A DNA stretch of 64,000 bases from contig JADEYG010000004.1 of the NCBI GenBank assembly GCA_016906335.1, positions 1,426,001 through 1,490,000 on the forward strand, read 5' to 3'. The first letter of the stretch is position 1. Each line of letters starts with the position of its first letter. Source of the stretch: Novakomyces olei. Taxonomy: Eukaryota. Below, piece after piece: positions 1,237-40,167 of the stretch. The position numbers and the translations under genes are program-made. Below the pieces are notes generated by a model that did no database searches, had not been told where the DNA came from, and saw only the letters and a list, made by a program, of their open reading frames with translations.

Positions 1237-1722
1237 TGTAATGAACCACTTAGGGTTAGTTAGGGTTAGGGTTATAAATATAGTTTAGGGTTATGGTTAG
1301 GGTTTACCCCACCTAGGATCCCTACCTAGGATCCCTTCCTAGGATCCTTACCTAGGATCCCTACCTAGGATCCCTTCCTAGGATCCCTTCCTAGGATCCC
1401 TTCCTAGGATCCCCTCTTCATTACTTACCTTTTTCCCCTCTTTTATTTCGTCTATACACTTCCGCGCGTTTATTTACTTTGCGCTATTTATTTGTTTACT
1501 TCTTTCCGTTTCCGGCGCAGCCCCTTCGCAGCGTGCTGCGCCTTCCTCCTCCGTCCGTAGCTTATAAATAGCGCCGTGGTGAGCCCAGCTCCCCACGGGT
1601 TAATCTATTCTATTCAATTTCTCTATTTAATTTTCTAATATATTTTCTAATATATTTTCTTTTACTTTCAGACGCCTACGTTTCGCTTCGCCTTTCTTCC
1701 CTCCTTTCCCCCTTTCCTCACA
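1237..1722 (+). repeat. 3' LTR of E1, with TTAGGG-like motifs (1250-1305) and a ~14-bp CCTAGGATCCCT tandem array (1312-1413)
   Basis: TG...CA termini, PPT just upstream, TATAAATA at ~1563. Confidence 0.75.
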
Positions 1723-1837
1723 TCTTCGCATAAGTAAGCCATTTGACCATAGAGGTTCTCCAAGATTGGAATTCTCTGTGGGTCATAGAATGCCCATTCA
1801 GCTTTGCTGGTTCAGGCAGCTTGATTTTGAAATCCAT
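1723..1837 (-). pseudogene. B1 gag N-terminus, interrupted by E1
   Basis: MDFKIKLPEPAKLNGHSMTHREFQSWRTSMVKWLTYAK matches B2/B3 gag starts. Confidence 0.85.
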
Positions 1838-1881: not shown

Positions 1882-2630
1882 CTAATAAAGAGTATTCAAA
1901 AATCCTGGTTGCTGTTTTCCGCTCTCCAAGTGTTTGTGATAATCTCTTTCAACTTTATCCGGATCTTCTCCTTTGTAAAGTCGAACCTTAAATTCGTCCT
2001 CCACAGTATTGTCCAGCAAGTATTTAGTTTTATTTCTTTTGTGTAGCTCTTGTATTCTGTCAGCTACCAATTTGTTGTAGGTCTCTTCGTACTTCAGCCT
2101 AGCTGCTGCCTTGCTCGTCCAATGAGCCTGCTTTCGGAAAATTTCTTCCTCGGTTATAGGCGTTCGAATGACTGGAGTTGGAGCCTGAGCCTCGACTAAG
2201 GCTGGTGGTGCGACGGCAATTGGCGTTGGAGCTTTGTTGACTTTGGGGGGCTTTGGAAAAGGTCGCAATGCCGCGTCAACAGCTCTCTGAAGTCCACTTT
2301 GTTTTCGCTCTTTGAATGCCTCCGATCGGCGAGCGTTTCTTTGTCTTCTCTTTGACAATTGTAAAGTCAAGTTGTCAGAAGATGTTGCAGGAGACGGTGT
2401 ACACTGATCGGTTGATCCAGATTCAGTGACGTAGTCCTCCACTACAGGAATATGATGTGGGCGGTCTTGTCCTGCCTGCACCTTGTTCCTGGGTGGATCT
2501 GTCTTTGCCTGACGCAAAAGATTTGCGCAAGGCTCAGAATAGATTCTCCTGTAAATCCGTCGGTTTTTTCCAGACGGTTGCACTGACGATGTTAGCAGTG
2601 AAAAAATATGTTAAGTGAGGATTACTCACT
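1882..2630 (-). CDS. B1 ORF0 (~233 aa, unknown function); ATG predicted from A2630 + TG 2582-2581 after removing intron 2583-2629
   Basis: Homologous to the ORFs at 4172-4882 and 6327-6998. Intron signals GTGAGT...GCTAAC...CAG. Confidence 0.78.
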
Positions 2631-2947
2631 GTTGTAACAATATAAATTAGACCTAGCTAAGAGATCTATCTTTTAGACTATGGGAAGTTGGGTCCTTTTA
2701 TAGACTTTTTGTGAAGCAGATAGGACGGAGATAGGAAGGAAATAGGAAGGAAATGATGAGTAATGATGATGAATCATTGATGAGTAATGATGACTCATTG
2801 ATGAGTAATGATGATGAATCATTGATGAGTAATGATGACTCATTGATGAGTAATCAATCTTGATTAGATTTGATTAGATCAATCTTGATTAGATTTGATT
2901 AGATCAATCTTGATTAGATTTGATTAGATCAATCTTGATTCCTAACA
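2609..2947 (-). repeat. B1 5' LTR with internal tandem repeats (GATGAGTAATGATGA; TCAATCTTGATTAGATTTGATTAGA)
   Basis: TGTTAGG...TTAACA termini, TATAAAA at 2702-2696, U5 motif shared with B2/B3. Confidence 0.85.
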
Positions 2948-3594
2948 CATTTCAGTCATCTTTGTCAGTGAGGCATGTCCTTGACTTCTGTGAATATCAT
3001 AGCCATTATGTTTAGACAAATTAAAAACAGAAGTAGCTTTTAGCAATCCAGAAATATAAAATTCGCCATTTGATGAGCGCATAATGCTCGTCAGGAATTT
3101 TCCTTTTCGTTGAATTTCAAGATTTTCGAAGTCAACTTTTAGATTATTATCCAGTAGAAGACCAAGAGAAATTAGATTGCAAGGTGCATTCTCAACGTAG
3201 CAGACATTATAGATTGTTGCCTCTTTGCCATTGAGAACTATCTCAATGTCACCTTGTCTGTCCGCAGTAATACTTTGTCCATTGGCTATTTTTAATGATT
3301 TTTTAATTAATTTTATATTAACAAGCCAATCCAGACGATTTGTAATATGTACGCCAGCTCCAGAATCAATAACAAATGTAGCGCTATCACTTTCAGTAGG
3401 CTCAGTTTCATTTGTTGCATAGTCATTATTAAGTCTCGCCATTAATGCTATTTTTTCAGTATCCTTTTTTGTATTTTTCTTCTTTAAAAACCAGCATTGT
3501 TTGACAGAATGACCAGGCTTCTTGCAATAAGAGCATTTGACCTTTTTATTATTATTTCCAGCATAATTGACCACTTTAGAAGGTTCATCCCCTT
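2948..3594 (-). pseudogene. Ty1/Copia polyprotein fragment: CCHC knuckle, protease, pre-integrase. Continues in frame from 31537-32155.
   Basis: CSYCKKPGHSVKQC, FVIDSGAGVHIT, IHRSQGHAS. TSD CCCTT at 3590-3594 and 31532-31536. Confidence 0.88.
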
Positions 3595-3792
3595 TGTTAT
3601 AACTGTGGAAATTACTCACTGTTATAACTTTTAGATTAATTAAATCTACCCTTAAACTATGGAAAACCTTGTCCTTTTATAGACGTCAAGGCTCAGCTCT
3701 TATCTTCGTAATTTGCCAAGAGATAGGATTAAGACTTTCCTATCAATTAGTAATCAGATAGGATCAGAAGTGACCGATCAATTAGTAATCAC
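3595..3792 (-). repeat. Partial B2-type LTR (U5/R side), inverted
   Basis: Reverse complement of 3955-4152; ends at ATCAC against the start of the next LTR. Confidence 0.9.
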
Positions 3793-4152
3793 TGTTAGGC
3801 CATAGTGTAGATAGTAAAATTAAAATTAAAAATGACATAATTAAATTAAATTAATTCACTCCAAATACGGAATCTAACCGATTTGGAGGAATATTTAATT
3901 ACTGATCATTAAATCAAGCCACTGATCGGGTATCTGTATCCTATCAATGATAAGGTGATTACTAATTGATCGGTTACTTCTGATCCTATCTGATTACTAA
4001 TTGATAGGAAAGTCTTAATCCTATCTCTTGGCAAATTACGAAGACAAGAGCTGAGCCTTGACGTCTATAAAAGGACAAGGTTTTCCATAGTTTAAGGGTA
4101 GATTTAATTAATCTAAAAGTTATAACAGTGAGTAATTTCCACAGTTATAACA
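3793..4152 (+). repeat. B2 5' LTR
   Basis: TGTTAGGCC...TTATAACA, TATAAAA 4066-4072, matches copies at 31040 and 31207-31531. Confidence 0.92.
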
Positions 4153-4882
4153 ACTTTTTTCACTGCTAACATTGTCAGTGAATCCGTCAGGAGACAGCCG
4201 ACGGCCTCGCATTGTCTACTCTGAGACATTTGCAAATCTCTTGAAGCAGGCAAAAACCGATCCAAAGGTTGTTGTCTCGGCTGGCTCTATCCGCCGAAGC
4301 AATACACCTAAGGATAAGGATAAAACCTCTGTGTCTGGACTTACCGACCAGAGTGCCCACTCAGAGAAAAATACCTCGATTCATCAATTGAATAAGAGGA
4401 AAGAAAGAAACGCTCGCCGATCGCAGGCATTCAAAGAGCGTAAACTCAACGGTCGAATTTCCAAGGGGCCTGAATCAATTGCTGCTATTGCGGCAAAGGT
4501 GCTCAGAAAACCTCCTCCACCAGCGCCGAGACTTGGTCCTTACCCAGCTCTTACAGCTCCTTCAGTTTCGCCGGCCACTATTTCTACTACAACTCCTCGT
4601 TTACCTCTATCAGCGGAAGAAGTTTTTCGAAAACAAGCGCACTGGACAAGCAAAGCGGCGGCCAATCTACGTTACGAGGAAACATACAACAAATTGGTGG
4701 CCAATCGCATTCAAGAGCTACACAATAGGAAGAAAACAAAATATCTTCTGGAGAACATCGTTGAGGACAGATTCAAAATTCGTCTCTACAGAGGAGAAGA
4801 TCCAAACAAAGTTGAGAAGGATTATTACGATCACTTGAAAAGTGGACAGCAATCACCAGCGTTTTCGAATACTTTGTATTAG
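4127..4882 (+). CDS. B2 ORF0 (~234 aa); ATG predicted from A4127 + TG 4179-4180 after removing intron 4128-4178
   Basis: ACA|GTGAGT...GCTAAC attgt CAG|TG AAT CCG; conserved in three copies. Confidence 0.78.
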
Positions 4883-4948
4883 TCTTTTATATTTAATATA
4901 TTTAATTCTTTATCAATTTAATTTAAATTGATTAAAATATATTTTAAT

Positions 4949-5978
4949 ATGGACTTCAAAATCAAGCTGCCTGAACCAGCAAAGCTGAATGGTCATTCAA
5001 TGACCCATAGGGAGTTCCAATCATGGAGAGGCTCTATGGTTAAATGGCTGACATATGTCAAAGCAGGAGGCAGTGTCACCGGGATTTCAGATATAGACTT
5101 AATTAGCATGTTCCTCGAATCGAACGCTACAATCTATGCTGAAGAACTCAGGGACAATGCTGGTGTAACGACAGATCAGATGCTTGATCATCTGGAGCGA
5201 AGCATTGTACCCAACGACTATTTACCACGCGCTTACAGCAAGTTTGTTACCTTCGCTCAAGGAACAAAAAGCATTAGCCAATATGCCACGCAACTTAAAT
5301 TGAAATCAATGGAACTAGAAATAGTTAACGAAGCCATCTTGATTCAACAATTCATCCATGGGCTAAATGAGAGAACAAAGCCTCAAATAATGGGATCTTT
5401 GAGAAGTGCATTTGGAAACCAGTCGGGAAACAACACAGGAATGACGAAATGGAAATGGCAAAGTGTGGTTGATGTGGCAACAGGCTACGATTTTACTGCA
5501 ACAAGACCATACGTAGGAAACATGAATCCTAAACAAGGCAACCAACAAACTGAAACAAAGGCAACTACTTCTGAGAAGAAAGAACCAGAGAAGCCAGCCC
5601 TCAGAACAAGATGTACCTTTTGTCGCCGCACTGGGCACACGTACGAGCAATGCTTTAAACGAAAGAATCAATCAACCATCAGTGCTCTTAAAGAAGATTC
5701 TGGAATAGTTAGCGAAGAAATCAAACTTGATTACAATTGTTCTGCTGTCCAAAACACAAACCAACAATTTCTAGTTAATTTACCTGTGGAAATAAATGAT
5801 GAAGAAATCAAATGTCAGGTCCTGATTGATACTGGAAGTGATATTGACGTTATTGACTCAAACTTTTGCAATGTTCACCGACCAACATACAAAGAAAGTG
5901 ACCACAAAATTCAAATGGCCTTTCAAGGATCGAAAACTGTGAGCAGATATATGGCCAAAGTCATGTTCAAGGGGAGCG
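4949..5978 (+). CDS. B2 gag (capsid, CCHC knuckle) plus protease, interrupted by B3
   Basis: CTFCRRTGHTYEQC, VLIDTGS; resumes at 20892 (ELNCAVARL). Confidence 0.9.
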
Positions 5979-6301
5979 TGTTAGGAGTGTAGATAATAAA
6001 TAATTAAACATTGAATTACTTAAAGGGTCCTAAACGTGTACGGATTAAAATTAAACATTGAATTACTTAAAGGGTCCTAAACGTGTACGGATTAAATCTG
6101 GAACCTCGGCATTTGATTAATAATTAATCACGCCATAGCGGAAGCTGACTCATGATTAGTCAAGGCTGACTCATAATTAATCACGCCATTTCGGGCTTTC
6201 GGACTACAGGAGTCTATAAAAAGGACACGGTTTCCCATAGTTTAGAACATAGTTTTTTCTATCTTTTAATTTATTTGTTACAACAGTGAGTTACCCTCAC
6301 A
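5979..6301 (+). repeat. B3 5' LTR
   Basis: TGTTAGGAG...CCCTCACA; lacks an 18-bp palindromic segment present in the 3' LTR. Confidence 0.92.
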
Positions 6302-6998
6302 CATTTTTTCACTGCTAACTAGGACAGTGACTCCCCCGTCTGGACAACGCCGACGGATTTACCCTCACGTTTTCTCTGAGCCTTTTGCAAATCTTTTGCG
6401 TCAGGCGAAAACTGATCCTCCTAAGGATAAGGTGTTGACTGGATATTGCCGTCAATACCCGGAGTCCAAGGAGCGAAAACAAAACTCTGAGTCTGGACCT
6501 GCCGACCAGAGTGTTCGACCCTCTTCCAGCTTGACTCTTCAGCTGTCGAAGAGAAGAGAAAGAAACGCTCGCCGTTCAGAGGCCTTCAAGGAGCGTAAGA
6601 GAATTGAAACGGTTTCTAAACCATTTGCAACACCTCGTCCGAAACCACTTCCAACCCCGATTCCGGCCCCGCTTCCGAAACCAGTTCCAGCACCAGTTCC
6701 AGCACCAGTTCCAAGATTACCGCTTACGGAGGAAGAAATATTTCGAAAAGAAGCTCATTGGACAAGCAAGGTTGCGGCTCAAATCAAATACGAGGACACC
6801 TACAATAATCTTGTGGCCAAAAGAATTCAGGAACTGAGCAGGAAGAAAAAAACTAAGTATTTGCTTGACAACATCGTTGAGGACGAATACAGAATCCGTC
6901 TTTTTAAAGGAGAGGATCCAGACAAAGTTGAAAAGGACTACTACGAACATTTGGAACAAGGACGACAAAAGCCAGCCTATCTTAATACGCTTTTTTAA
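6285..6998 (+). CDS. B3 ORF0 (~223 aa); ATG predicted from A6285 + TG 6328-6329 after removing intron 6286-6327
   Basis: ACA|GTGAGT...GCTAAC tagga CAG|TG ACT CCC. Confidence 0.75.
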   Translation, partial: SELPSHIFSLLTRTVTPPSGQRRRIYPHVFSEPFANLLRQAKTDPPKDKVLTGYCRQYPESKERKQNSESGPADQSVRPSSSLTLQLSKRRERNARRSEAFKERKRIETVSKPFATPRPKPLPTPIPAPLPKPVPAPVPAPVPRLPLTEEEIFRKEAHWTSKVAAQIKYEDTYNNLVAKRIQELSRKKKTKYLLDNIVEDEYRIRLFKGEDPDKVEKDYYEHLEQGRQKPAYLNTLF

Positions 6999-7069: not shown

Positions 7070-9326
7070 ATGGATTTTAAGATTAAATTACCTGAGCCTA
7101 CGAAATTGAATGGTCGCCCAATGACCCATAGAGAGTTCCAGTCATGGAGACACTCTATGGTAAAATGGCTCGCCTATGTCAAGACAGGCGAACATCCTAT
7201 TGCTATTTCAGATGTCGACTTGATTAGCATGTTTCTCGAATCAAATGCTTCGATCTATGCTGAGGAGCTCCGTGACAATACTTCTCAGCAAATCAAATGC
7301 TTGATCACCTTGAGAGAAGCATTGTTCCGAACGATTATCTACCTCGTGCATACAGCAAGTTTGTTACCTTCACTCAGGGCACAAGAAGCATTAGCCAATA
7401 TGCAACGCAGCTTAAGCTCAAATCAATGGAACTTGAGATAGTCAACGAGGCAATCTTGATTCAACAATTCATACATGGATTAAATGAAAGAACCAAACCT
7501 CAAATAATGGGATCATTGAGAAGTGCATTTGGAACTCAATCCGGTGATAGTTCGAACATGGCAAAATGGAATTGGCAAAACGTTGTTGATGTGGCTACAG
7601 GTTATGACTTTGCGACAGCAAGACCCTTTGTTGGAAATATGAGTACGAAAGCAGCCAGTCAGAGAATAGAGGCACGAGCTGATGTTCCTGAAAAGAGTGA
7701 ACCAGAGAAACCTATTCTCCGAACAAGATGTACTTTTTGTCGCAGAACTGGGCACACCTAGGAGCAATGTTTCAAAAGAAAGAATCAGTCAAGTGTGAGT
7801 GCTCTTCAAACAAGCACAGAAATAGATAACGAAGAAATAAAACTTGAGTATCACTGTTCCGCTGTCCAAAATACCGGTCAACAATTTCTTGTAGTCCTAC
7901 CAATTGATATAAACGGTAAAGAAATAAAATGTCAAATACTTATTGACACCGGGAGTGACCTTGACGTTATTGATTCGAACTTCTGCAATGTTCACCGACC
8001 AAAATACTATGAAAGTGACCATAAAATTGAAATGGCATTTCAAGGATCAAGAACTGTTAGCCGACACATGGCAAGAATAGGATTTAAGGGATATGAGTTG
8101 AATTGCGCAGTGGCAAGACTGAGAACCTCTGACCTTCTCATCGGAATGGGAACACTAAGCAAACTTGGAGCAATTGTCAATACCAGAAAGAGACAAATAC
8201 AATGGAAAAAAACAAGATAAACCATACGATTCAATATCACAAAAGGGGGCAGCCGTTGTAAGTTCAATCACAATTGATCCAAAGAAAAGGATTGATGTTC
8301 AGTCAGTTCGAGAACAAGACACAATTGACTCAAATAAGGTACTGGAAGTGCTACAAGACAAGTTCAAGCAAACTTTGGTAGCAAGTCCACCAAGCAAATT
8401 GCCTATAATGAGACCAGTGGTTGCAACATACGAGCCGATCGACCCACACAAGAAGTACAATATCAAAAAGTGGTATCCAAGCAAGAAACTAATGATGCCC
8501 TTAAAGCTGAAAATTGATGAACTTCTACACGCCAAAATGATATCAATTTCTACAGAAGAGCCAAGTGCCATATTATTTCCTATTCCTAAAGACAAAGACA
8601 TGGTCAACAAGCTCACAGATCCAAAAGAAATCAAGAATTATCTGCGATTTGTCAATGACGCTAGACCTCGGAATGCGAACATGAAACGCTTTTACATTCA
8701 GGTTCCTCGCATTGACATTGTAGTTCAAGATATTGCCAGAGCAAAATACAGAACTAAGATTGACTTGAAGGACGCTTTCTTCCAATCTAGAATACAGCCT
8801 GGGCAAGAACATTATACGGCATTTTGGACGCCATTTGGAATATACCAATGGAATGTGATGCCACAAGGAGATCGAAACTCTACTGCTATACAACAGCAGC
8901 TTATGGAGGAATTATTCAGACCCTACATTGGCATTTGGATGACAGTATATGTTGACGACATCATCATATACGATGACGATGTCCAGGAACACTTGGATCA
9001 CCTAGTGATTGTCTTTGGAATAATGTCTAAATGGGAACTATACGCTAGTCCAGCCAAGACCTTTCCATTCTGCAAAAGCTTTGTGGTACTAGGCAGACAG
9101 ATCAGTGATGAAGGAATCAAGATGACTGAAAAATCAAGAAACTCCATACTACGACTAGAAACTCCAAAGAACATGAAACAAATACAGAGACTGGTGGGCA
9201 TGCTAAACTGGATTTCAACGTTCATACCCAATTTATCGTCATACATCTCAACGTTCACTGAAATGAAGGAGTTTTCGTGGGATGAAACTAAGCAGAAAGG
9301 ATTTGACAAAATAAAGTCTGCAGTTC
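7070..9326 (+). pseudogene. B3 gag-protease-RT, with frameshifts (~7290, ~8210) and a stop (7759), interrupted by element A
   Basis: LIDTGS, KIDLKDAFFQ, MPQG, YVDD motifs. Confidence 0.9.
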
Positions 9327-15322: not shown

Positions 15323-15952
15323 TGTAAGACGGTCCTTACAGCTACAATCGCTGGAGGCCGGCCGTGTATAGTTTAAATAAAGTAAAGGAATAAGAAAGAC
15401 CAGGAAAGCAGAAAGCGATTACTGTAAAGCTTACCAGGAGTAATATAATGTATTACTCCCACTTTGAGATAATCAACCGTGAAGGGCGAGAGGCCTTCAC
15501 GGGCAACTATAAACTAAACTAAGTTGCGGAGGAGCGGATGCTCCTTCGCATTCTAAACTACTCTTCCCAAACTAACTTATGCGAAGGTCGCACAAGTTAG
15601 AGCGGGAAGCTCTCAACCTAAACTAGACTATGGAAATAACTATGAATGTTCTCGCGCTAGCGGAGTGCGAAGGGTCGCACTCGCTAGCGTGCGAGAATGA
15701 GAACGGGAAGCGAGGTCCGTGCACATTGTGCATGGAGCCCCTCGCTCCCGTGGGCCAAGCTGGCTTAGTGCGCGTACCTACATGCGCACTAAGACAACTT
15801 CTACGTCCCAAGACCATCGCATTACGCGCCGACTGGTCTTGGGCCGCGTTGGCGAAGCTTGCGACGCGCGGACATCCCAAGTCCGACTACAGGCGTCGCC
15901 CCTCGCTTCCCAACGCGGTTGTCAGGAACTCGCCAAGGCGAGGATCATGACA
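15323..15952 (-). repeat. A 5' LTR
   Basis: Matches 9327-9957 apart from a 1-nt indel seen by eye. Confidence 0.95.
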
Positions 15953-15957
15953 AGTTC

Positions 15958-16686
15958 AGCAAGACATAATACTCAAGCCATTTAACCCAGAGCCTCTGAA
16001 CAATGGAACAGAGAAATTATTCATGGGAATAGATGCCTCTCTAGTGGGCACTGGAGGTTGGCTAGGTCAAGGAAAAGAATGGCAAACATGCAGAATAATT
16101 GGGTTTACCTCTAAGAAACTTGGAATAGCAGAATCCCACTATCCAGTTCACGAACTTGAATATCTAGCATGCATCAGAGCATTGGAGCATTTCGAAATAT
16201 ATGCTAGAGGATATCAGGTAAATTGTTTGACAGACAATAAAGCATTAAGTCGTCTTCTTTACTCGAAGAACGTTATGCTGTCGCGACGTCATCTACGATG
16301 GATGGATTTTTTGAATGAATTTGACATCAATATTATACACGTGCCAGGAACACTTAACGTCTTAGCAGACTTATTGTCACGCTCTCATTCACACTCAAAG
16401 GTCGCTGCAATCTCTATTGAACAAACTCCAAATACAGATATAGATGAAGAGATACAAAATCTCTATCTCAAGGATACACATTGGGCAGAAATACTCGCAA
16501 TATTGAAAAGCAATGAAGAAAATCCAGATACCGAAAAACTTAAATCAAGATATTATCTCAAAGATAATCTCATTCACCTCAAATTTGATGACCGAATCTG
16601 TATTCCTTCAGGCTTCACAAACAAGATAATACAAGAACTTCATGACACATATCAAGGAGGACATGGAGGAATAAATAAGACAATAG
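15958..16686 (+). pseudogene. B3 RNase H region (first copy of a tandem RT-RNase H duplication)
   Basis: GIDASLVGTGG, ELEYLA, TDNKAL; repeated at ~17628-18356. Confidence 0.88.
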
Positions 16687-19574
16687 TCCACCAAGCAAAT
16701 TGCCTATAATGAGACCAGTGGTTGCAACATACGAGCCGATCGACCCACACAAAAAGTACAATATCAAAAAGTGGTATCCAAGCAAGAAGCTAATGATGCC
16801 CTTAAAGCTGAAAATTGATGAACTTCTACACGCCAAAATGATATCAATTTCTACAGAAGAGCCAAGTGCCATATTATTTCCTATTCCTAAAGACAAAGAC
16901 ATGGTCAACAAGCTCACAGATCCAAAAGAAATCAAGAATTATCTGCGATTTGTCAATGACGCTAGACCTCGGAATGCGAACATGAAACGCTTTTACATTC
17001 AGGTTCCTCGCATTGACATTGTAGTTCAAGATATTGCCAGAGCAAAATACAGAACTAAGATTGACTTGAAGGACGCTTTCTTCCAATCTAGAATACAGCC
17101 TGGGCAAGAACATTATACGGCATTTTGGACGCCATTTGGAATATACCAATGGAATGTGATGCCACAAGGAGATCGAAACTCTACTGCTATACAACAGCAG
17201 CTTATGGAGGAATTATTCAGACCCTACATTGGCATTTGGATGACAGTATATGTTGACGACATCATCATATACGATGACGATGTCCAGGAACACTTGGATC
17301 ACCTAGTGATTGTCTTTGGAATAATGTCTAAATGGGAACTATACGCTAGTCCAGCCAAGACCTTTCCATTCTGCAAAAGCTTTGTGGTACTAGGCAGACA
17401 GATCAGTGATGAAGGAATCAAGATGACTGAAAAATCAAGAAGCTCCATACTACGACTAGAAACTCCAAAGAACATGAAACAAATACAGAGACTGGTGGGC
17501 ATGCTAAACTGGATTTCAACGTTCATACCCAATTTATCGTCATACATCTCAACGTTCACTGAAATGAAGGAGTTTTCGTGGGATGAAACTAAGCAGAAAG
17601 GATTTGACAAAATAAAGTCTGCAGTTCAGCAAGACATAATACTCAAGCCATTTAACCCAGAGCCTCTGAACAATGGAACAGAGAAATTATTCATGGGAAT
17701 AGATGCCTCTCTAGTGGGCACTGGAGGTTGGCTAGGTCAAGGAAAAGAATGGCAAACATGCAGAATAATTGGGTTTACCTCTAAGAAACTTGGAATAGCA
17801 GAATCCCACTATCCAGTTCACGAACTTGAATATCTAGCATGCATCAGAGCATTGGAGCACTTCGAAATATATGCTAGAGGATATCAGGTAAATTGTTTGA
17901 CAGACAATAAAGCATTAAGTCGTCTTCTTTACTCGAAGAACGTTATGCTGTCGCGACGTCATCTACGATGGATGGATTTTTTGAATGAATTTGACATCAA
18001 TATTATACACGTGCCAGGAACACTTAACGTCTTAGCAGACTTATTGTCACGCTCTCATTCACACTCAAAGGTCGCTGCAATCTCTATTGAACAAACTCCA
18101 AATACAGATATAGATGAAGAGATACAAAATCTCTATCTCAAGGATACACATTGGGCAGAAATACTTACAATATTGAAAAGCAATGAAGAAAATCCAGATA
18201 CCGAAAAACTTAAATCAAGATATTATCTCAAAGATAATCTCATTCACCTCAAATTTGATGACCGAATCTGTATTCCTTCAGGCTTCACAAACAAGATAAT
18301 ACATGAACTTCATGACACATATCAAGGAGGACATGGAGGAATAAATAAGACAATAGCCGGTGTTGCGCGGACTTATTATTGGCCAGCAATGGCAAAAGAA
18401 ATTAAGGACTATGTGAAGTCGTGCGAGACGTGTGCTAAGAGCAAAATTACACCTCACAAGCCCATTGGTTTACTACAAGAGCTGAACATACCAAAGGCTC
18501 GATGGGAAACCATTGGAATGGATTTCATTACTGGGCTTCCTTTATCTGGAAAGGAAAAATACGATGCAATAATTTGTATTGTTGACCGACTCACCAAACG
18601 CGCACATTTTTGGCCAACACACACAACTATAACCGCTGAAGGCACAGCAGCTCTATTCTTGGATCGATATTTCTGCCTACATGGTCTACCAAAAATAATT
18701 ATTAGTGACCGAGATGTCAGGTTTATGTCAGAGTTTTGGACACAACTCACAAAGGTTCTTGAAGTCAAACTCAAACCATCATCAAGCTATCACCCACAAA
18801 CAAATGGGCAAACGGAAAGAACAAACAGGGTTCTCGAAGATTACCTACGCCTATTTACATATGCCAATCGTAACAACTTCACATGGCACAAATTGCTTTC
18901 GTTTGCAGAATTCTTCTATTCCTCAAGCAAACACTCTGCTATCTCGATGACTCCATTTGAAGCTGACCTAGGATACAATCCAAGAAGCTTAAGTGATCTT
19001 GCAATATCTATTCCACAAAGTCAAGACAATTCATCATTCCTTGAAACTCTAGCAGCTAATCAAATACTCTGTCAAGATGCCATAAGAGCCGCACATGACT
19101 TATCAAAGATTTATGCAGACAAAAACAGACTCAACATTGAATATGAAGTCAACGACTATGTATACCTGAGTACTGCAAACATTCGAGAAATACCTGAACT
19201 ATTTCAACATGACTTGACCAGAAAACTTCAATCCAAATACATTGGACCATACAAAATTGTTAAAAAGGTCAGTCCAGTGGCATATGAACTGGAACTACCC
19301 ACAAATTTAAAATATCATTCAGTTGTTCATATCTCACAACTCAAAAAGCACAATGCAATGACTGAACAGAACGAACGTGAACAACCAAAACCAAAAGCTT
19401 TGCGACGCTATAAAGATAATACAGAACTTTATGCTATACAAAGCATAGTTGACCACGCTTGGTTCAGAGCTGACAAAAAGTCTACAACACCTAAAAAAGG
19501 CTACACCTTACTTTACCGAGTTCGCTGGGAAGGATACAATCCTGAGGAAGACACATGGGAGCCAAAACAACACC
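16687..19574 (+). CDS. B3 pol: RT, RNase H, integrase, chromodomain (interrupted at the chromodomain end; completes 20482-~20570)
   Basis: YVDD, zinc-binding H...H...CETC, SDRD, HPQTNGQTER, KYIGPY, YRVRWEGY...TWEP. Confidence 0.93.
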
Positions 19575-20476
19575 TGTGAGGGTAACTCACTGTTGTAACA
19601 AATAAATTAAAAGATAGAAAAAACTATGTTCTAAACTATGGGAAACCGTGTCCTTTTTATAGACTCCTGTAATGGATTAATAATTCATTGTCCGAAAGCC
19701 CGAAATGGCGTGATTAATTATGAGTCAGCCTTGACTAATCATGAGTCAGCTTCCGCTATGGCGTGATTAATTATTAATCAAATGCCGAGGTTCCAGATTT
19801 AATCCGTACACGTTTAGGACCCTTTGAGTAATTCAATGTTTAATTTTAATCCGTACACGTTTAGGACCCTTTAAGTAATTCAATGTTTAATTATTTATTA
19901 TCTACACTCCTAACATCCTCCCCCACTAATTCGAGATGTGTCGAATTGTAGTTGTCAAGGAGTTGTCTGGAATGTAGTAGGTGTTGTTTTGGCTCCCATG
20001 TGTCTTCCTCAGGATTGTATCCTTCCCAGCGAACTCGGTAACGTAAGGTGTAGCCTTTTTTAGGTGTTGTAGACTTTTTGTCAGCTCTGAACCAAGCGTG
20101 GTCAACTATGCTTTGTATAGCATAAAGTTCTGTATTATCTTTATAGCGTCGCAAAGCTTTTGGTTTTGGTTGTTCACGTTCGTTCTGTTCAGTCATTGCA
20201 TTGTGCTTTTTGAGTTGTGAGATATGAACAACTGAATGATATTTTAGATTTGTGGGTAGTTCCAGTTCATATGCCACTGGACTGACCTTTTCAACAATTT
20301 TGTATGGTCCAATGTATTTGGATTGAAGTTTTCTGGTCAAGTCATGTTGAAATAGTTCAGGTATTTCTCGAATGTTTGCAGTACTCAGGTATACATAGTC
20401 GTTGACTTCATATTCAATGTTGAGTCTGTTTTTGTCTGCATAAATCTTTGATTATTTATTATCTACACTCCTAACA
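19575..20476 (-). mobile_element. Internally deleted B3-family mini-element (26 bp of 5' LTR + pol 3' end + PPT + full 3' LTR) inserted antisense into B3 chromodomain
   Basis: TSD ACACC at 19570-19574 and 20477-20481; LTR 19575-19915; LTR stub 20451-20476. Confidence 0.85.
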
Positions 20477-20545: not shown

Positions 20546-20886
20546 TGTTAGGAGTGTAGATAATAAATAATTAAACATTGAATTACTTAAAGGGTCCTAA
20601 ACGTGTACGGATTAAAATTAAACATTGAATTACTTAAAGGGTCCTAAACGTGTACGGATTAAATCTGGAACCTCGGCATTTGATTAATAATTAATCACGC
20701 CATAGCGGAAGCTGACTCATGATTAGTCAAGGCTGACTCATAATTAATCACGCCATTTCGGGCTTTCGGACAATGGATTATTAATCCATTACAGGAGTCT
20801 ATAAAAAGGACACGGTTTCCCATAGTTTAGAACATAGTTTTTTCTATCTTTTAATTTATTTGTTACAACAGTGAGTTACCCTCACA
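20546..20886 (+). repeat. B3 3' LTR
   Basis: Follows PPT gggggagga, ends CCCTCACA. Confidence 0.92.
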
Positions 20887-20891
20887 GAGCG

Positions 20892-22377: not shown

Positions 22378-23082
22378 TGTCATGATCCCCGCCTCGCGTG
22401 AACCACGACAGCGAACGACGCCTGAAGTCCTGTAGCGCCAAAGGCGATGACTTCAGGCTAGATAGATCTAAATAGCTCGCGCGAGGTAATGTTGGACATT
22501 ACTCGCGCGAAGCGCGTAAGTGGCCTAGCTCGCGAGCAGGTTGGACCTGGCTCGCGCGAAGCAGGTCCACGTCCATGCCCGCGCGACGTAGGCACGTCGC
22601 GGCGCATGACAGTAGTAGTAGCGATCGCGCATCGCTACGAAGCTAGATAGATCGATCCATAGAGTTCATAGCTCGCCACCGCTTTCCCAATGCGGATGGT
22701 CTGGGACCATCGCATTGAGATCGTGGTGGGATGAGGCTTAGGCCGCGAAGTGGCTAAGCGAGCCGCTAAGCCTCATAGGATAGTCTACATAGTCGCCCAT
22801 GGAGAGAACTCTCTCCACGGGCTTATAATCTCAAAGTTGCTACATAACCTTGTAGCAGGTAAGCTTTAGAGAAGCGCCGTCGCCTTTTCAAGGACAACGT
22901 CCTTTTCCTTTTCCTTAGTTCTTGCGCCGGGCGCAAGTCTACGTTCCCGTTTCTCGGTACTCGCTTCGCGCGGTACCCGATTGAACTTCCTTTGTCGAGC
23001 GGTCTCGCAAAGGACAGTCCGTGTTCGCCTGTAGCGACACGCGAGTTTACACCGCGGTGCTCCCCTCTAAGGGCCACCTACA
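22378..23082 (+). repeat. C 5' LTR
   Basis: TGTCATGATCC...TACA. Confidence 0.95.
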
Positions 23083-23251
23083 CTATTATAAGCCGTGAGC
23101 TCGTCTAAGCTACAGATTTACACGGCGTTGAAAGGTGTCACGCACGGAGGCGTACACAAATTTCGATTTACAAGTTTTATTTCGCACTAAGTTGTTGCGA
23201 CGAAGGGTGCTTTGCTACGGTTTAGCAGCACAAACGAATTATTGAATTACG

Positions 23252-29282: not shown

Positions 29283-31052
29283 CAAGTCAATTGTTTGACA
29301 GACAACAAAGCTCTGAGTCGCCTCCTTTACTCCAAAAATGTTATGCTTTCACGAAGACACCTTAGATGGATGGATTTTTTGAATGAGTTCGATATTAATA
29401 TTATTCATGTTCCTGGAACTGAAAATATCTTGGCTGATCTACTTTCAAGAACACACGGAAAAACAGCGGATATAGGTGCAATTTCCGTACAAATCTCGCC
29501 CCAGAATAATTTAAAATTTGAGCTGGCCTACGAAAAGGACAAACATTGGTCCAAAATACTCACTATTTTGAAAAATCCAGACAATTTTGCAGACAATGAA
29601 AGCGTAAAAATCAAATCGCGCTACTACATCCAAGACGGTATAATACATCTCAAATACGATGATAGAATCTGCCTACCGACAGATTTCACAAACATCATAA
29701 TAAGAGAATCACATGACACCTACCAAGGAGGGCATGGAGGCATAAAGAAAACAATAGCAGGCGTAGGCCGCAAATACTACTGGCCAGGGATGGCAAAAGA
29801 AATAAATGAATATGTCAGATCATGTGAAACGTGTGCTAAAAGCAAAATTATACCTCAAAAGCCAATGGGACTATTGCAAGAACTCGATATACCGAGTAAT
29901 CGTTGGCAAACAATAGGCATGGACTTCATCACTGGACTACCAGCTTCGGGAACTCAAAAGTTTGATGCTATAATTTGCATAGTTGATCGTCTAACCAAAA
30001 GAGCTCATTTCTGGCCCACGCACACAACTGTAACAGCACAAGGAACTGCACAGCTATTTTTGGAAAGATACTTCTGTCTACACGGCTTACCAACTGCAAT
30101 AATAAGTGACAGAGATGTAAGATTTATGTCTGAATTTTGGCAGACACTTACAAAAATTCTTCAAATCAAACTGAAGCCATCATCAAGCTATCACCCACAG
30201 TCCAACGGTCAAACCGAACGTACAAATCGTGTATTGGAAGACTATCTTCGTCTTTTCATTTATGCCAATAAAAACAACTTCAGCTGGCACACATTATTAT
30301 CGTTTGCCGAATTCTTTTACTCTTCAAGCCAACACTCCGCCATATCAATGACACCCTTTGAGGCGGATCTTGGCTCCATCCCACGCAGTCTTACTGACTT
30401 ATCAATGCCCGAAACACCGAACAAAGATACTTCCTTTTTTATAAACACTCTGGAGGCCAACAAAATTCTTTGTCAAGATGCTATCAGAACAGCACATGAT
30501 TTATCAAAAATCTATGCGGATGAAAAGCGACTAAATGTTGAATATAATGTTAATGACCTGGCTTATTTAAGCACAGGCAACATACGAGAAATACCGGAGC
30601 TATTCCACGATGTTCTCACACGAAAATTACAATCAAAATACATTGGTCCATTCAAAATTATTCAAAAAATCAGTCCTGTTTCATATGAATTGGAACTACC
30701 AACATCCATAAAATATCATCCCGTTGTTCACATTTCTCAATTAAAGAAACATCATCCAATGAACAGTCACAACACCAGAGAACAACCTAAGCCTAAAGCT
30801 CTGCGACGCTACAAAGACAACACAGAATTATATTTAATTAAACAAATCGTTGATCATGGATGGTTCAAAGGATCTAAAAAATCCAATACACCGAAACAGG
30901 GGTATAAGCTTTTATACCGAATCCGCTGGGAAGGCTATGGACCTGAAGACGATACATGGGAACCTAAATCTCACTTGGCTAACTCAACCAACCTGCTGAA
31001 CAACTACAATTCGACACATCTCGAATTAGTGGGGGAGGATGTTAGGCCATAG
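29283..31052 (+). CDS. B2 RNase H end, integrase, chromodomain (ORF runs through the PPT into the LTR)
   Basis: TDNKAL, CETC, SDRD, HPQSNGQTER, KYIGPF, YRIRWEGY...TWEP. Confidence 0.92.
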   Translation, partial: QVNCLTDNKALSRLLYSKNVMLSRRHLRWMDFLNEFDINIIHVPGTENILADLLSRTHGKTADIGAISVQISPQNNLKFELAYEKDKHWSKILTILKNPDNFADNESVKIKSRYYIQDGIIHLKYDDRICLPTDFTNIIIRESHDTYQGGHGGIKKTIAGVGRKYYWPGMAKEINEYVRSCETCAKSKIIPQKPMGLLQELDIPSNRWQTIGMDFITGLPASGTQKFDAIICIVDRLTKRAHFWPTHTTVTAQGTAQLFLERYFCLHGLPTAIISDRDVRFMSEFWQTLTKILQIKLKPSSSYHPQSNGQTERTNRVLEDYLRLFIYANKNNFSWHTLLSFAEFFYSSSQHSAISMTPFEADLGSIPRSLTDLSMPETPNKDTSFFINTLEANKILCQDAIRTAHDLSKIYADEKRLNVEYNVNDLAYLSTGNIREIPELFHDVLTRKLQSKYIGPFKIIQKISPVSYELELPTSIKYHPVVHISQLKKHHPMNSHNTREQPKPKALRRYKDNTELYLIKQIVDHGWFKGSKKSNTPKQGYKLLYRIRWEGYGPEDDTWEPKSHLANSTNLLNNYNSTHLELVGEDVRP

Positions 31053-31206
31053 TGTAGATAGTAAAATTAAAATTAAAAATGACATAATTAAATTAAATTA
31101 ATTCACTCCAAATACGGAATCTAACCGATTTGGAGGAATATTTAATTACTAATCATTAAATCAAGCCACTGATCGGGTATCTGTATCCTATCAATGATAA
31201 GGTGAT
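31040..31206 (+). repeat. B2 3' LTR, U3 part only (ends at GTGAT)
   Basis: Matches 3793-3959. Confidence 0.9.
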
Positions 31207-31531
31207 TGTTATAACTGTGGAAATTACTCACTGTTATAACTTTTAGATTAATTAAATCTACCCTTAAACTATGGAAAACCTTGTCCTTTTATAGACGTCA
31301 AGGCTCAGCTCTTATCTTCGTAATTTGCCAAGAGATAGGATTAAGACTTTCCTATCAATTAGTAATCACCTTATCATTGATAGGATACAGATACCCGATC
31401 AGTGGCTTGATTTAATGATTAGTAATTAAATATTCCTCCAAATCGGTTAGATTCCGTATTTGGAGTGAATTAATTTAATTTAATTATGTCATTTTTAATT
31501 TTAATTTTACTATCTACACTATGGCCTAACA
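31207..31531 (-). repeat. Complete B2-type LTR, inverted
   Basis: Reverse complement of 3793-4152 minus a 35-bp duplication; followed by TSD CCCTT. Confidence 0.9.
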
Positions 31532-32706: not shown

Positions 32707-35408
32707 ATGGCAGAACCTTTAAGGCCAGAGCCCGGTTCGTTCGAGATAAACGATGGAATTCGACGAATGCTGAACGATAATCCCTTTACACCGCATTTAT
32801 ATTACTTTTACGAAAATCTACGTCGGATTGACAAAGCAGGCTATAGAGACCCTTCAGGACAGTATAATGCTCTTTTGCTCCATGAAAAAGGTAACGATTG
32901 GGTCTCGTCGATTTTTCTTTATGCCTAACATCTATAGACTATTTTAGGCTGGCTGGAATCTTGCTTTGGCAGTTGAGTGCTGTAGCGGAGGATGTTCAAC
33001 CTGCTATAAGTGATTTAGTTATCGACATTGCCTCTGATATCCGGCTTTACTATCATGACATTGCCCCAGTCCTGACGGCTGCATTTAAACATGATAACGA
33101 CTTAGAGATTTGGGAGAAACTGAACGATGTTGTAGCGGAAAGCCAAAGGAAGGTCGAGCGATTAAGGCAAGCTCAAAGCCAAACGAAGGAAGAGCCACCA
33201 AAACAAGCTCCTGGCACGCCACTCAATATTAATTCTATTGCGTACAATTCTAGCGAACGATTAATAGAGGTCGAAGAGCAAATCAAAGCTGAACTTAAAT
33301 TTTTCTATATCAACTTTGAGGTGGAGGATATTTTGTCCACTCAGAAAAAATCGCTCAATAAACTATCGGCGAGAGTGGTTAAAGAGGCAAACCAAGAAAA
33401 CTTACTCTTCAAAAACGGTAAATTGAAGGATTGGCCCAAATCAGCGAAGGAGGCAGCGGTGCTAGATTGGCTCAAGAGTTTTGTAACGCAAATAAGCAAC
33501 ATTTACAAGCGAATTAAAGGCACAGAGGTGCGGCGAACTACAATGTCTGCGGCGAATAAACCTCTCCCTGGAAAGTTCGCACGCAAACCTGACATTTTCT
33601 TCATAAAGCGAAATGCTGATAAACAATGGAACAACGTCTTGGTTGTGGGAGAGCTAAAAAGCAGTCGTAAGGCCGATAGCCCTGCACAAGCATGGGTTGG
33701 CCTTGCAAAGTATATAAAGGAAATATTTCGAGCGCAGGATAACCGTCGATATGTTTTGGGATTTACGCTTTGCGACTCGTCGATGAGGGTGTGGAAATAT
33801 GATCGATGTGGGGCGATAGCATCAAAAGCATTCGACATCAACAAAGCAACAGGCCTGATAGTCTACGTGATGCTGTTTTTCCTTACGATGGGAGAGAAAG
33901 AGCTGGGTTACGATCCGACAATTGTCAGTAGAGAGAAAGATAGATATATCGATATTAAACTAGGGCGGACGCGTGAGCGACTTATAATTGACAAAGTGTT
34001 GAAGACTTCGAGCGGAATTGCGTGCAGAGGCACGACGGTATGGCTGGCGCACCGAGAAGGGGATAAGAGCGCAGTCAGAGTGATCAAAGACTCGTGGCAG
34101 GAGCCGGAGCGAAGGGAAGAAGGGGAGCTGCTTAAGCTAGCGGGTACTCGTGGTGTCGAGAATATTTCGCGATATTATCACCATGAGGTGGTTCACATTG
34201 ATGGCAAGGAAGACGATCTTATGAGCAATGTGCGGAATGGATTAGACATGACCGGAGCTCTAAAAAAGGCAATTCCGGATCTTGGAGCAAGATGGTCGAG
34301 AGGATCGACCGGATCGGGCACTTCAGCACTTGACATGCGGCGAAGCAGTACTCGGTCAGCGAAATCTCCATTATGGAATATAGAGGAGAATGCGGAGGAG
34401 AGGTCCGGAGAGTCGTCGCCAGCAAAGCAGATTGATTCTTTGGATGCGAAAATCAAAAACCGAGTCCATCGACGAGTCGTTGTGTTGGACTACGGGAAGC
34501 CATTGTACAAGGCAAGTTCACACATAGAGCTACTGAAAGGGATAATGGGATGTCTTGAGGGCCACCGGTCGCTTGTGAAGAATGATATTCTGCACCGGGA
34601 CATTTCGATCGGGAACTTGATGATGAATGAGGGGTCTGAAAATCCAGGGTCTCGGCGGGCATTTCTTATTGATCTTGAGTTTGCGATCAGGATCAGCCAA
34701 GCTGGTCTGTCAGGCGCGATGGAGAGAACAGGAACGAGGCCGTTTATGGCGATACCTTTACTAGACGGAAAAGATCATACCATGATGCACGACATTGAGT
34801 CGCACTTTTGGGTGGCTTACTGGATTTTGACTCACTATTTCCAAAATGGACAGCCTATTAATCAGAATTCTCCGTATGATGATTGGAACTATGCCAGTAT
34901 GTCAAAGGTCTCGGCGTATAAATCAAAAATCGTTGAGAATCCCGATATTTTTATGCGCGAAATGTCGGAAAATTTCACTAATGACCATAAGCCTTTGATG
35001 GGATGCATGGAAAAGCTTCGCATTGCATTGTTCATGAAAGATTCAAGAGGCGTACGTATCGAACAAGGTGAAGAATTGTATGACAAAATTCTCAATATAT
35101 TGAGCAGCGAAGTGGAGCGGCTGGAAAAGCTGCAACGAAAGGGGGTCCAAGGAGGCGGTGAACTCCAGGGAGGCCAGGTCAATCAGGTCAGCCAGGGAGG
35201 CCAGGAGGCAGGGAAGCCAGAAGGGCCACGGAGGTCACTGAGGTTACGAGATCCATGGGGACAGAGAGGCCACGAAGCCTATGGCAGCTATAAATTCCAG
35301 AGAGAATATGAAAATCGTAGAGACCATGGGAATCAGGGTGGTCAGGAGGACGAAGAAATTCATGAAGGCCAGGGAGTCCCGAAGAAAAAGGCAAGAAGGG
35401 TCAAGTAG
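32707..35408 (+). CDS. Fungal-type protein kinase (FunK1 / Pkinase_fungal); intron 32891-32937
   Basis: GELK, IKDSW, HRDISIGN, LIDLEFA, RTGTRPFMA, HDIES. GTAACG..CCTAAC..TAG intron restores the frame. Confidence 0.9.
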
Positions 35409-38527: not shown

Positions 38528-39318
38528 ACTGCAGTTATCTTACCATCGTGTCTTTTGAGCGAGTAGGCCGCTCACTACGAAACTCTGTAGTAATTTTGGC
38601 CATAATCCAAACAGACCTTCATTCAACCATCAATAGCCATGATAATCATATGCAATGCCCTAGAAAATGTCGCATTCATCTTCTGAGAACCTTACATCTA
38701 TTATTCCTCACTAGCCATGACGAACTCGCAATAGCTCAAACTTTTGCTTCTCAGTCCAAATCATCATCCATTTGAATTTAATTGTCCAATGAATAGATCA
38801 TAGCCCAGCAAGTCGTGATGCCGCCGCCGAGGTTTCAGTCGATCATTTTATTTTGAAGATAGCAATGAGTCATGATTAATCTACTGGCTCTCATTTGACA
38901 CTTCACGCCTGCTATAAACTGCTTTCACAAATATAGTTTAACCAACAAGATTGCATCGGCCAGAGGGATGCCGACGGCGCCCTCATAGTGGGTCAAAATA
39001 AGCCTTTGTGCGACCGAGCTGATAGTACAGTTTTTGTGTTCTGTGAGGTGAAAGGAAGGAGAGATGTATGATAGACTATCTCAGAAAGCAACCGGCTGAA
39101 ATTGCAAACCCAAAGCTATATGTTCTGCTCTAGTCACATAATCTGGTGTTTCCGTGCGTATGTTATCGTAAATAAGATGAAACGCTGTGACAATAAATTC
39201 CGTCATATTTTGAATGCTCTAATTGTGATATTAAAACAAATGCAGCGTCTGCCACTGCTCACTTTGATATGATTGATTGCCATTTACTGGTAGAGCCTAC
39301 AGTGGTCTGTTACAGACC

Positions 39319-40167
39319 ATGGCAAGGTTAATGGATTACACAACATGTGCCGAAAGCTTGCAGCTGCTGCCTTTGCTTACTATTGTTGATTCTTCTGGCG
39401 GAGCCCTTGAAAAGATCCCTTTTGCGTTCATCGAGCGTGCTGGATCGCCTGGTGTGAAGACAGTGCAGTATCTAGTACGCACACTATACAGCATTCTTTT
39501 GATTGATGAGGGATCAGTTGTGCTAGAATGTAATGGTTTTGCGTGCGAATTGTCTGACCTTACACGACCTGCTAGATACACGTTAGTACGACCTACTTCA
39601 GATTCGCTGCGCTTTCGACCGGGACCTCAAGGCAAGTCTCGATTTAAGACGCTTCCATCGGATGGAACGGGTTCGCAATCTACGTATAGCAGATCGTCGC
39701 GTAGCTCTGCACGGCAGCAAAATTTTAGGTTAGCTGCAATCGGCCGTGACAATTCTCGATGCTTGTTGAGCGGACTTCAGAGCCTGGATGTGCTTGAAGC
39801 TTGCCATATCGTTCCGTACAGTCTCGGCCAGGAATTTCTTGATGAGATAGTTGAAGCCAACGACTCTGATGGACTGGACATCGGTCTGTATAGCCTTGTG
39901 AACTCTCTTGTACTTCGGAAAGATCTACATCGCAGCTTCGACTGTTATCTTTTTGGTATATGGTATGAAAACGGGCATTATTACGTTCATTCTTTTGAAT
40001 CGACCATGTTTTATGAGTTCCATGGTATGGAGATTACCTGGCCAGACTTCATTCCGGACACTCGCAAACCAAGCCCACTTCTGCTGAATTGGCATTATTC
40101 TCAGTGTTTGATGGCCCGATTTAGGGGATTTAAGGTCAGCATACCGCTACCAGAATGTGAACTTTGA
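39319..40167 (+). CDS. HNH endonuclease (HNH_2-type) domain protein
   Basis: RDNSRCLLSG...EACHIVP...NSLVLRKDLHRSFD...PSPLLLNWHY. Confidence 0.85.
   Translation: MARLMDYTTCAESLQLLPLLTIVDSSGGALEKIPFAFIERAGSPGVKTVQYLVRTLYSILLIDEGSVVLECNGFACELSDLTRPARYTLVRPTSDSLRFRPGPQGKSRFKTLPSDGTGSQSTYSRSSRSSARQQNFRLAAIGRDNSRCLLSGLQSLDVLEACHIVPYSLGQEFLDEIVEANDSDGLDIGLYSLVNSLVLRKDLHRSFDCYLFGIWYENGHYYVHSFESTMFYEFHGMEITWPDFIPDTRKPSPLLLNWHYSQCLMARFRGFKVSIPLPECEL

Follow-up and report, generated by a model that had tools for sequence, protein, structure and literature searches.

A candidate mini-intron at the long terminal repeat/primer-binding-site junction of a fungal chromovirus that may complete the start codon of a gene upstream of gag

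In foamy viruses and human T-cell leukaemia virus type 1 (HTLV-1), a splice donor lies in the R region of the 5′ long terminal repeat (LTR), and its use removes U5 (PMC3694450, PMC3434621). According to the available text of these sources, the donor stands 5′ of both the U5 end and the primer-binding site (PBS), the spliced mRNAs lack both and encode non-Gag products, and the unspliced RNA serves as genome and gag mRNA (PMC3694450, PMC3434621). Accessory proteins are also made from spliced RNA in Springer, whose env donor is placed 43 nucleotides (nt) downstream of the 5′ LTR and past the PBS (PMC13097621, available text), and in Cer1, where the first exons of CERV share the gag frame (PMC10309623, available text). 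[quoted passage not shown] Here we describe family B, an LTR retrotransposon with three diverged copies (B1, B2 and B3) in a 64,000-nt stretch of Novakomyces olei DNA (assembly GCA_016906335.1, contig JADEYG010000004.1, positions 1,426,001 to 1,490,000; hereafter the window). In each copy an intron-like stretch spans the LTR/PBS junction, and its removal would write the start codon of ORF0, an open reading frame (ORF) upstream of gag that holds no methionine codon. On balance we lean slightly towards the view that this stretch is a working leader intron: splicing would then create the ORF0 start codon while taking out the PBS.

The geometry is of retroviral type at the sequence level only: a donor in R/U5 of the 5′ LTR, an acceptor just 5′ of an accessory ORF, and gag on the unspliced RNA. 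Unlike in foamy viruses or HTLV-1, the candidate intron would measure just 42–51 nt and take out little other than the PBS position and the end of U5; its acceptor directly precedes the ORF that comes before gag, rather than env or tax, and the start codon would be assembled at the junction. The element is, moreover, a fungal chromovirus. With errantiviruses (gypsy/Springer-type) and Cer1, family B would share Gag/Pol made from unspliced RNA, an accessory protein made from spliced RNA and an AUG-free first-exon leader, but in the available accounts of those elements the intron spans gag-pol, the accessory ORF lies 3′ of pol and the start codon is not split by an intron (PMC13097621, PMC10309623). 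The original prediction suggested that the mechanism had not been described, which is too broad, as LTR-internal donors that remove U5 are known from the available parts of PMC3694450 and PMC3434621. The narrower part stood: in the literature searched, where coverage of subscription journals is incomplete, we found no description of a mini-intron limited to the U5 end and PBS whose removal completes a start codon for an ORF lying 5′ of gag. Some cellular genes have a start codon interrupted by an intron, so that the ATG comes from two exons. Unlike in those genes, the family B splice would choose between exclusive uses of a retroelement RNA.

All three copies share one layout: ...AACA|GTGAGT, a variable spacer bearing insertions and deletions, the LTR end ...ACA, two variable nt, the 16-mer TTTTTTCACTGCTAAC, five variable nt and CAG|TG (table 1). 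The coordinates and strings originally given for the three copies proved exact on re-reading and on scripted re-extraction. Joining the exons yields an ATG in frame with ORF0 in 3/3 copies, as had been proposed, and gives M-Q-P-S-G in B1, M-N-P-S-G in B2 and M-T-P-P-S-G in B3. The donor lies 16–25 nt inside the LTR. The LTR ends taken from the second LTR copies of B3 and B2 agree with the earlier placement of the U5 end and the PBS position inside the intron, and the 16-mer starts 2 nt past the terminal CA of the LTR, at the PBS position. Very likely, to judge from this position, it doubles as the PBS. Because the acceptor is internal, the intron could form only at the 5′ end of the element; the 3′ LTR of B3 has the same GTGAGT, followed by neither branch site nor acceptor.

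The candidate intron looks like a host intron in all three copies, with a 5′ GTRAGT, a CTRAY branch site near a 3′ YAG and a length within the host range. Host introns in the window, read from the junctions of adjacent host ORFs, measure ~35–59 nt, so the proposed fit in size holds; their donors are GTAAGA, GTAAAC or GTAGAT, their branch sites are of the CTGAC type and their acceptors are TAG. In family B the branch A falls at position 33, 38 or 42 of the intron in the different copies, and its distance to the 3′ G is 9 nt in every copy. B3 has an additional TAG at 6320–6322, correctly flagged from the outset as a caveat, whose AG comes only 3–4 nt past the branch A. An AG so near the branch A is normally skipped by spliceosomes.

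A strict short-intron pattern occurs 10 times on the two strands of the window, against 10.1 ± 3.1 expected from 200 Markov-1 simulations; because this count is at chance level, a lone match carries no weight. Three of the ten create an ATG, and these are the B copies (0.165 expected, simulation maximum 2), which are homologous and so do not count as three independent draws. The weight for the intron is in conservation and context, the pattern alone being insufficient. In the three-copy alignment, the blocks AACAGTGAGT (10/10), the 16-mer (16/16) and CAGTG (5/5) are invariant. Since synonymous sites of the copies are saturated (proportion of synonymous differences, pS, 0.62–0.70), these blocks are under constraint. 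The U6 tract, GTGAGT, GCTAAC and CAG are kept throughout, and the spacers between them vary in sequence and length. The pattern co-occurs with ORF0, being present in 3/3 copies of family B and 0/2 elements of family A, a second chromovirus family in the window. As a control, GTRAGT was found within 80 nt upstream in none of 35 unrelated database loci holding the 15-mer.

Upstream of the donor by 62–73 nt lies a 14-nt block, invariant in the three copies, that contains a TATA box, and a second invariant block follows the TATA by ~20 nt. Both are consistent with a transcription start 5′ of the donor and an exon 1 of ~35–45 nt. The candidate exon 1 has no ATG in any copy, and the AUG at the junction would have A at −3 in all three.

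Under the reading that we favour, the long leader before gag would host the accessory gene ORF0 and be kept ATG-free in all three frames. The full-length unspliced RNA would be both genome and gag-pol mRNA, on which scanning ribosomes would meet the gag ATG first. The host-type mini-intron would extend from within the 5′ LTR to just past the PBS position, and its splicing would join the last A of exon 1 to TG, giving the first AUG of the spliced RNA, which would open ORF0. The spliced RNA would have neither the U5 end nor the PBS position and should not serve as a template for reverse transcription; the original argument that splicing costs the RNA its PBS position is geometrically sound. We infer that the intron is removed in the RNA and that ORF0 is made from spliced RNA only.

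The leader has the composition that such a scheme would need. Between the TATA box and the start of gag (883, 855 and 865 nt), none of the three copies has an ATG in any frame. About 14 per copy would be expected, and zero was reached in 0/2000 shuffles; for comparison, B2 gag contains 29 ATGs in 1025 nt and B3 pol contains 65 in 2901 nt. On the unspliced leader of all three copies, no ATG precedes that of gag. The leaders of the two family A elements are likewise ATG-free (440 and 502 nt), and elements of both families evidently depend on scanning to the gag AUG.

ORF0 encodes ~223–234 amino acids and ends 44–71 nt before gag. None of its 222–233 codons specifies methionine in any copy. The proteins are 56–58% identical between copies. 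Pairwise synonymous divergence (dS) is 1.3–2.0, which is saturated, so that sites free of constraint are in effect independent among the three copies. The ratio of non-synonymous to synonymous divergence (dN/dS) is 0.14–0.29, insertions and deletions are all multiples of three, and the other two frames hold 3–15 stops. By the low dN/dS, the in-frame indels and the frame kept free of stops despite saturation, ORF0 is a real protein-coding gene under purifying selection. These same features argue against ORF0 not being a gene at all, in which case the open frame would reflect RNA-level constraint on a long structured leader and the intron-like stretch would be irrelevant. That alternative could appeal to the lack of an ORF0 homologue in the protein resources searched and to a mean predicted local distance difference test (pLDDT) score of 54.6 for the AlphaFold2 model. 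However, absence from protein databases is expected, because an ORF without an ATG is never called by gene finders, and we regard the alternative as very improbable indeed.

Searches for relatives of ORF0 gave no match among protein homologues of near lengths, none at E ≤ 0.001 for a HMMER profile run against 1.84 billion representative proteins, no usable match in the ESM Atlas and none in the PDB by sequence profile. No Pfam family was assigned, with just two stray single-member matches at E ≤ 10. Pattern matches in metagenomes (585), viral sequences (78) and genome contigs (63) yielded no confirmed ORF0-related locus, and 0 of 4 candidate relatives of B2 gag in viral contigs were confirmed. 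Scans with DNA motifs returned 9 metagenome loci, 26 viral loci and one genome locus, all unrelated chance matches, the last being a bacterial coding sequence. The AlphaFold2 model, built from a three-sequence alignment and of low confidence, contains only helices and disorder: a basic helix at about residues 64–90, a proline-rich disordered linker and long C-terminal helices. This suggests a nucleic-acid-binding regulator. A bZIP-like interpretation of the basic stretch was dropped, as it was unsupported by Pfam. An ORF0-gag fusion through a second intron was rejected, with no signals for one.

Because the leader is ATG-free and ORF0 contains no methionine codon, ORF0 needs an unconventional start, and a junction AUG is one way to provide it. 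Alternatively, no splicing may take place: the conserved blocks would be priming apparatus of the Tf1/sushi type, and ORF0 would be translated from the unspliced RNA by weak GUG or CUG initiation, with most ribosomes leaking to gag. An in-frame GTG at the ‘acceptor’ and an in-frame CTG inside the 16-mer are present in 3/3 copies, and leaky scanning would equally demand an ATG-free leader, such as family A also has. Murine leukaemia virus glyco-Gag starts at a CUG upstream of gag, and family B resembles it in having an AUG-free leader before the gag AUG, an upstream near-cognate codon and two possible proteins per RNA. Unlike glyco-Gag, ORF0 is a separate ORF that stops short of gag, and its near-cognate codons are in poor context. 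Neither combines a purine at −3 with a G at +4: at the GTG, the three copies read T/A/T at −3 and A/A/C at +4, and at the CTG all of them read T and C, respectively, at these positions. Near-cognate initiation also gives no reason why the parts should form a textbook intron with an in-frame AUG as its product.

The priming half of this alternative starts from the nature of the element. Judged by its domains, family B is a fungal Ty3/gypsy chromovirus LTR retrotransposon of the Tf1/sushi kind. It has the order gag, then pol with reverse transcriptase, RNase H and integrase, and a C-terminal chromodomain; Pfam recognised Retrotrans_gag in B2 gag, where a zinc knuckle is present, and RVT_1, RT_RNaseH, Integrase_H2C2, rve, SH3_Tf2-1 and Chromo in B3 pol. 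We assign it to the Tf1/sushi kind because of these domains, including the Tf2-1-type SH3 and chromodomain, and the same two domains favour a Tf1-like priming apparatus. As far as the available text of the sources describes them, Tf1, Tj1 and Tcn1 share with family B the Tf2-1-type SH3 and chromodomain, a PBS that is not of the tRNA type (TGG...), a leader segment with complementarity to the PBS position, and a hairpin in U5 that involves the end of the LTR (PMC7175516, PMC4600332, PMC6317226). The accessible parts of these reports predict self-priming for Tcn1-clade and Tj1 elements (PMC4600332, PMC7175516) and report self-priming, and the ‘novel priming’ of other basidiomycete Tcn elements (PMC7175516, PMC6317226). 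In family B the 16-mer contains no TGG, and a PBS for a tRNA 3′ end was rejected, since no TGG follows the LTR. Without splicing, the 16-mer would be the PBS and pair with GTTAYAACAGUGAG in R/U5, either as self-primer or in a U5-IR-like (inverted-repeat) structure.

The two family A elements show clear self-priming complementarity. Their PBS likewise starts 2 nt past the LTR CA and is complementary to the LTR over 10–13 contiguous base pairs (bp), formed by GGCTTATAAT/ATTATAAGCC in one element and GGTTGATTAT/ATAATCAACC in the other. The two elements differ here in ways that compensate and keep the pairing, and by this covariation family A has a Tf1-type self-priming signature. In Tf1, as the available accounts have it, the first 11 nt of the mRNA are in a contiguous duplex; family A fits this scheme well and family B does not fit it cleanly. 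The only conserved LTR complement of the family B PBS-position motif is the donor region, GTTA-YAA-CAGTGAG / TTCACTG-C-TAAC, which speaks for a priming role of both segments. However, this helix is short and interrupted (7 bp with one G-U, a 3x1 loop and 4 bp), its LTR partner is 25–35 nt from the PBS, it does not start at the PBS 5′ end, and the U4-6 tract stays without a partner. Primer and mapped LTR end misfit simple self-priming, and a primer at GTTAY... would leave merely 11–20 nt of R+U5 for strand transfer.

What pairing does explain is the invariance of positions at which splicing would tolerate change. CAGUGA occurs twice in the family B segment, at donor and acceptor, and UCACUG once between them, and pairing among these words accounts for degenerate splice positions that never vary. 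If the two CAGTGA words are cut one base apart, the ATG at the junction also results automatically. Left unexplained are the T at intron +6, the C of CTAAC, the unpaired U-tract, the constant 9-nt spacing from branch site to CAG, and again the in-frame AUG given to a gene without methionine. With the evidence on both sides, we consider an unspliced leader unlikely, though a serious contender.

Single-sequence folds predict two hairpins. Hairpin 1 would hold GUGAG and the LTR end in a U5-IR-like arrangement, with a stem that differs in sequence in B2, and hairpin 2 would form between CACUG and CAGUG, its loop carrying CUAAC and its stem the 3′ CAG. A PBS complementary to the element's own polyadenylated 3′ end was rejected, as there was resemblance only and no workable 3′-OH. 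The window holds no second copy of the 16-mer complement, and Rfam and tRNA scans of it found nothing, hence no candidate primer RNA.

Several points weigh against a functional leader intron. The comparative base is three copies in one window, none of them intact. The 16-mer sits where family A also has its PBS, and its conservation is explicable without splicing because a PBS must lie there. The cap position is deduced; a cap at GTTAYAACAG, which is where Tf1-type self-priming would put it, would shrink exon 1 to ~9 nt or abolish it. RNAalifold pairs GUUA..CAGUGAG with UUCACUG.UAAC over 11 bp, all invariant, so that no covariation is possible. Degenerate splice positions (GTG/AAGT, CTA/GAC, C/TAG) are invariant in family B and variable in host introns, which points to an extra, non-splicing constraint, and the single-sequence folds place the 5′ splice site as well as the 3′ CAG in predicted stems. 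Finally, efficient splicing would come at a cost to the element, because the PBS goes with the intron.

In a further alternative, the 5′ splice site would be a binding site for the U1 small nuclear ribonucleoprotein that is little used for splicing. Placed at the R/U5 border of a very short R-U5, it would by analogy let U1 curb premature cleavage and polyadenylation in the 5′ LTR or aid escape from nuclear surveillance, and the AUG would be incidental or rare. In the available text on foamy virus, U1 binding at the major donor in R suppresses 5′ LTR polyadenylation, and structure masks the donor of the 3′ LTR (PMC3694450). In family B an A/T-rich stretch 5′ of the donor could be a poly(A) signal, and the donor is predicted to lie in the hairpin with the LTR end. 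U1 binding leaves unexplained, however, the conserved branch site and CAG with their fixed 9-nt spacing, the in-frame TG and the translation of a methionine-free ORF0 under purifying selection, and we hold it to be quite improbable as the main function.

Splicing and priming may instead be joined in one device. The 16-nt U6-CACUG-CUAAC would then be PBS and U-tract/branch site at once, an RNA switch would make splicing and priming exclusive, and ORF0, made from spliced RNA only, would feed back on unspliced RNA. CACUG could pair either with the donor CAGUG or with the acceptor CAGUG, and this choice would be the switch. Because the two splice cuts would fall at points one base apart in the repeated CAGUGA word, the joined exons would necessarily write AUG. 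ORF0, an orphan basic helical protein, would act on export, packaging or splicing of the unspliced RNA, as Rev, Rex or CERV do, forming an early/late circuit in the style of complex retroviruses in a fungal chromovirus. As a whole we find this elaboration tentative and rather unlikely.

If the functional leader intron is real, a tiny host-type intron is a fate switch for the RNA of a fungal LTR retrotransposon. Once spliced, the RNA would gain a start codon that the DNA nowhere spells out and would code for an accessory protein specific to the lineage, but would lack the site that reverse transcription needs. The logic of complex retroviruses (LTR donor, spliced accessory protein, AUG-free leader) would extend to fungal chromoviruses, and it would be clear why such genes escape annotation, as a methionine-free ORF is never called. 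The family B segment is a clean test case for splicing, choice of translation start and priming competing on one short RNA. Even without splicing, a gene of ~230 codons wholly ATG-free in all frames within a gag leader is an unusual and instructive constraint.

Table 1. Features of the three family B copies, in positions of the window.
Feature	Position	Strand	Basis or remark
B1 gag start	1715..1837	−	ATG at 1837–1835; only the first 41 codons left
B1 ORF0 exon 2	1882..2582	−	TG + 232 codons + stop; 0 Met codons; begins T2582, G2581
B1 candidate intron	2583..2629 (47 nt)	−	read from sequence and alignment; runs 2629→2583; last base of exon 1 A2630
B1 invariant 16-mer at PBS position	2591..2606	−	alignment
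B1 LTR	2609..2947	−	start from TGTTAGG; end inferred by comparison with B2 and B3; window lacks a second B1 LTR
B2 5′ LTR (TGTTAGG...TTATAACA)	3793..4152 (360 nt)	+	start matches 3′ LTR start after polypurine tract at 31040; end from inverted LTR copy at 3594–3792
B2 TATA box, inside 14-nt block invariant in 3 copies	4066..4073	+	alignment; putative promoter, 62 nt 5′ of donor
B2 candidate intron GTGAGT...GCTAAC...CAG	4128..4178 (51 nt)	+	holds last 25 nt of LTR and PBS position; last base of exon 1 A4127
B2 invariant 16-mer TTTTTTCACTGCTAAC	4155..4170	+	begins 2 nt past LTR end; PBS position, putative U-tract and branch site
B2 ORF0 exon 2	4179..4882	+	TG (4179–4180) + 233 codons + stop; 0 Met codons
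B2 gag	4949..5978	+	ATG is first ATG of unspliced RNA; broken by B3 insertion
B3 5′ LTR (TGTTAGG...CCTCACA)	5979..6301	+	second LTR copy and GAGCG duplication
B3 candidate intron	6286..6327 (42 nt)	+	read from sequence and alignment; last base of exon 1 A6285
B3 invariant 16-mer at PBS position	6304..6319	+	alignment
B3 ORF0 exon 2	6328..6998	+	TG (6328–6329) + 222 codons + stop; 0 Met codons
B3 gag ATG	7070..7072	+	first ATG after TATA box
B3 3′ LTR	20546..20886	+	fixes LTR end at ...CCTCACA

B3 is a genuine insertion and lies inside B2. Its LTRs have the TG...CA ends of LTR retrotransposons, beginning TGTTAGG and ending CCTCACA, and the element is flanked by a 5-bp target duplication, GAGCG, at 5974–5978 and 20887–20891. 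The polypurine tract GGGGGAGGA stands immediately 5′ of its 3′ LTR, and the same tract is found in B2 at 31031–31039, just before the B2 3′ LTR, which begins at 31040. Although the two B3 LTRs share 99–100% identity and the ORF0 of this copy is intact, its gag is frameshifted near 7285 and contains an in-frame TAG at 7759–7761. Possibly B3 was a defective copy that was mobilised in trans.

The interior of B3 is, by its duplicated segments, rearranged beyond a simple nested insertion: pol segments flanking a nested family A element are repeated with 99–100% identity (8384–8764 = 16685–17065; 15953–16379 = 17623–18049). At the B3 3′ end (19575–20473) the pol end is followed by three inverted segments (LTR, polypurine region and pol end), and then by the true 3′ LTR; the palindromic LTR arms there are 481 and 415 nt long and 99–100% complementary. 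At the B2 3′ end (31040–31530) a truncated forward LTR runs directly into a full inverted LTR, and at the B2 5′ end the final 199 nt of the LTR recur in inverted orientation (3594–3792) and abut the start of the 5′ LTR at 3793. These palindromic LTR junctions could be rearrangements, aberrant products of reverse transcription or assembly artefacts. On the minus strand, 2942–3593 is a fragment of a different element, with the zinc-knuckle end of a gag and a DSGA-type protease, that abuts the inverted B2 LTR piece; by eye it looks copia-like.

The two family A chromoviruses, at 22441–23100 (+) and 15323–15776 (−), have LTR pairs that are 100% identical, and one is nested in B3 and the other in B2. 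In neither leader did we find an ORF of at least 150 codons or an intron-like pattern at the LTR/PBS junction. Both LTRs, at 22826–22872 (+) and ~15420–15470 (−), carry the self-primer followed by CTCAAAGT, an element-specific hairpin and a conserved GGTAAGCTTTA(G/C)AG, which is 5′ splice-site-like. A long leader intron starting from GGTAAGC was rejected for family A: no credible branch site or acceptor precedes gag, and the intron would be ~390 nt in a host with short introns.

The window as a whole is transposon-rich fungal DNA, whose host genes include a FunK1-type ‘fungal protein kinase’ (32895–35408), a sugar transporter and HNH_2 proteins. Two paralogous host ORFs at 39277–40167 and 48841–49761 (+) have an HNH_2 endonuclease domain and similar C-terminal halves. 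Repeats occupy 600–720, 1250–1430 and 54376–57421, and comprise TTAGGG-like degenerate repeats, a 41-nt poly(A) run (~672–712) and a minisatellite of CCTAGGATCCC(T/C)T. A unit of 15 nt also forms two large arrays, in which GC skew is strong and reaches 0.6. This setting may be subtelomeric or satellite DNA.

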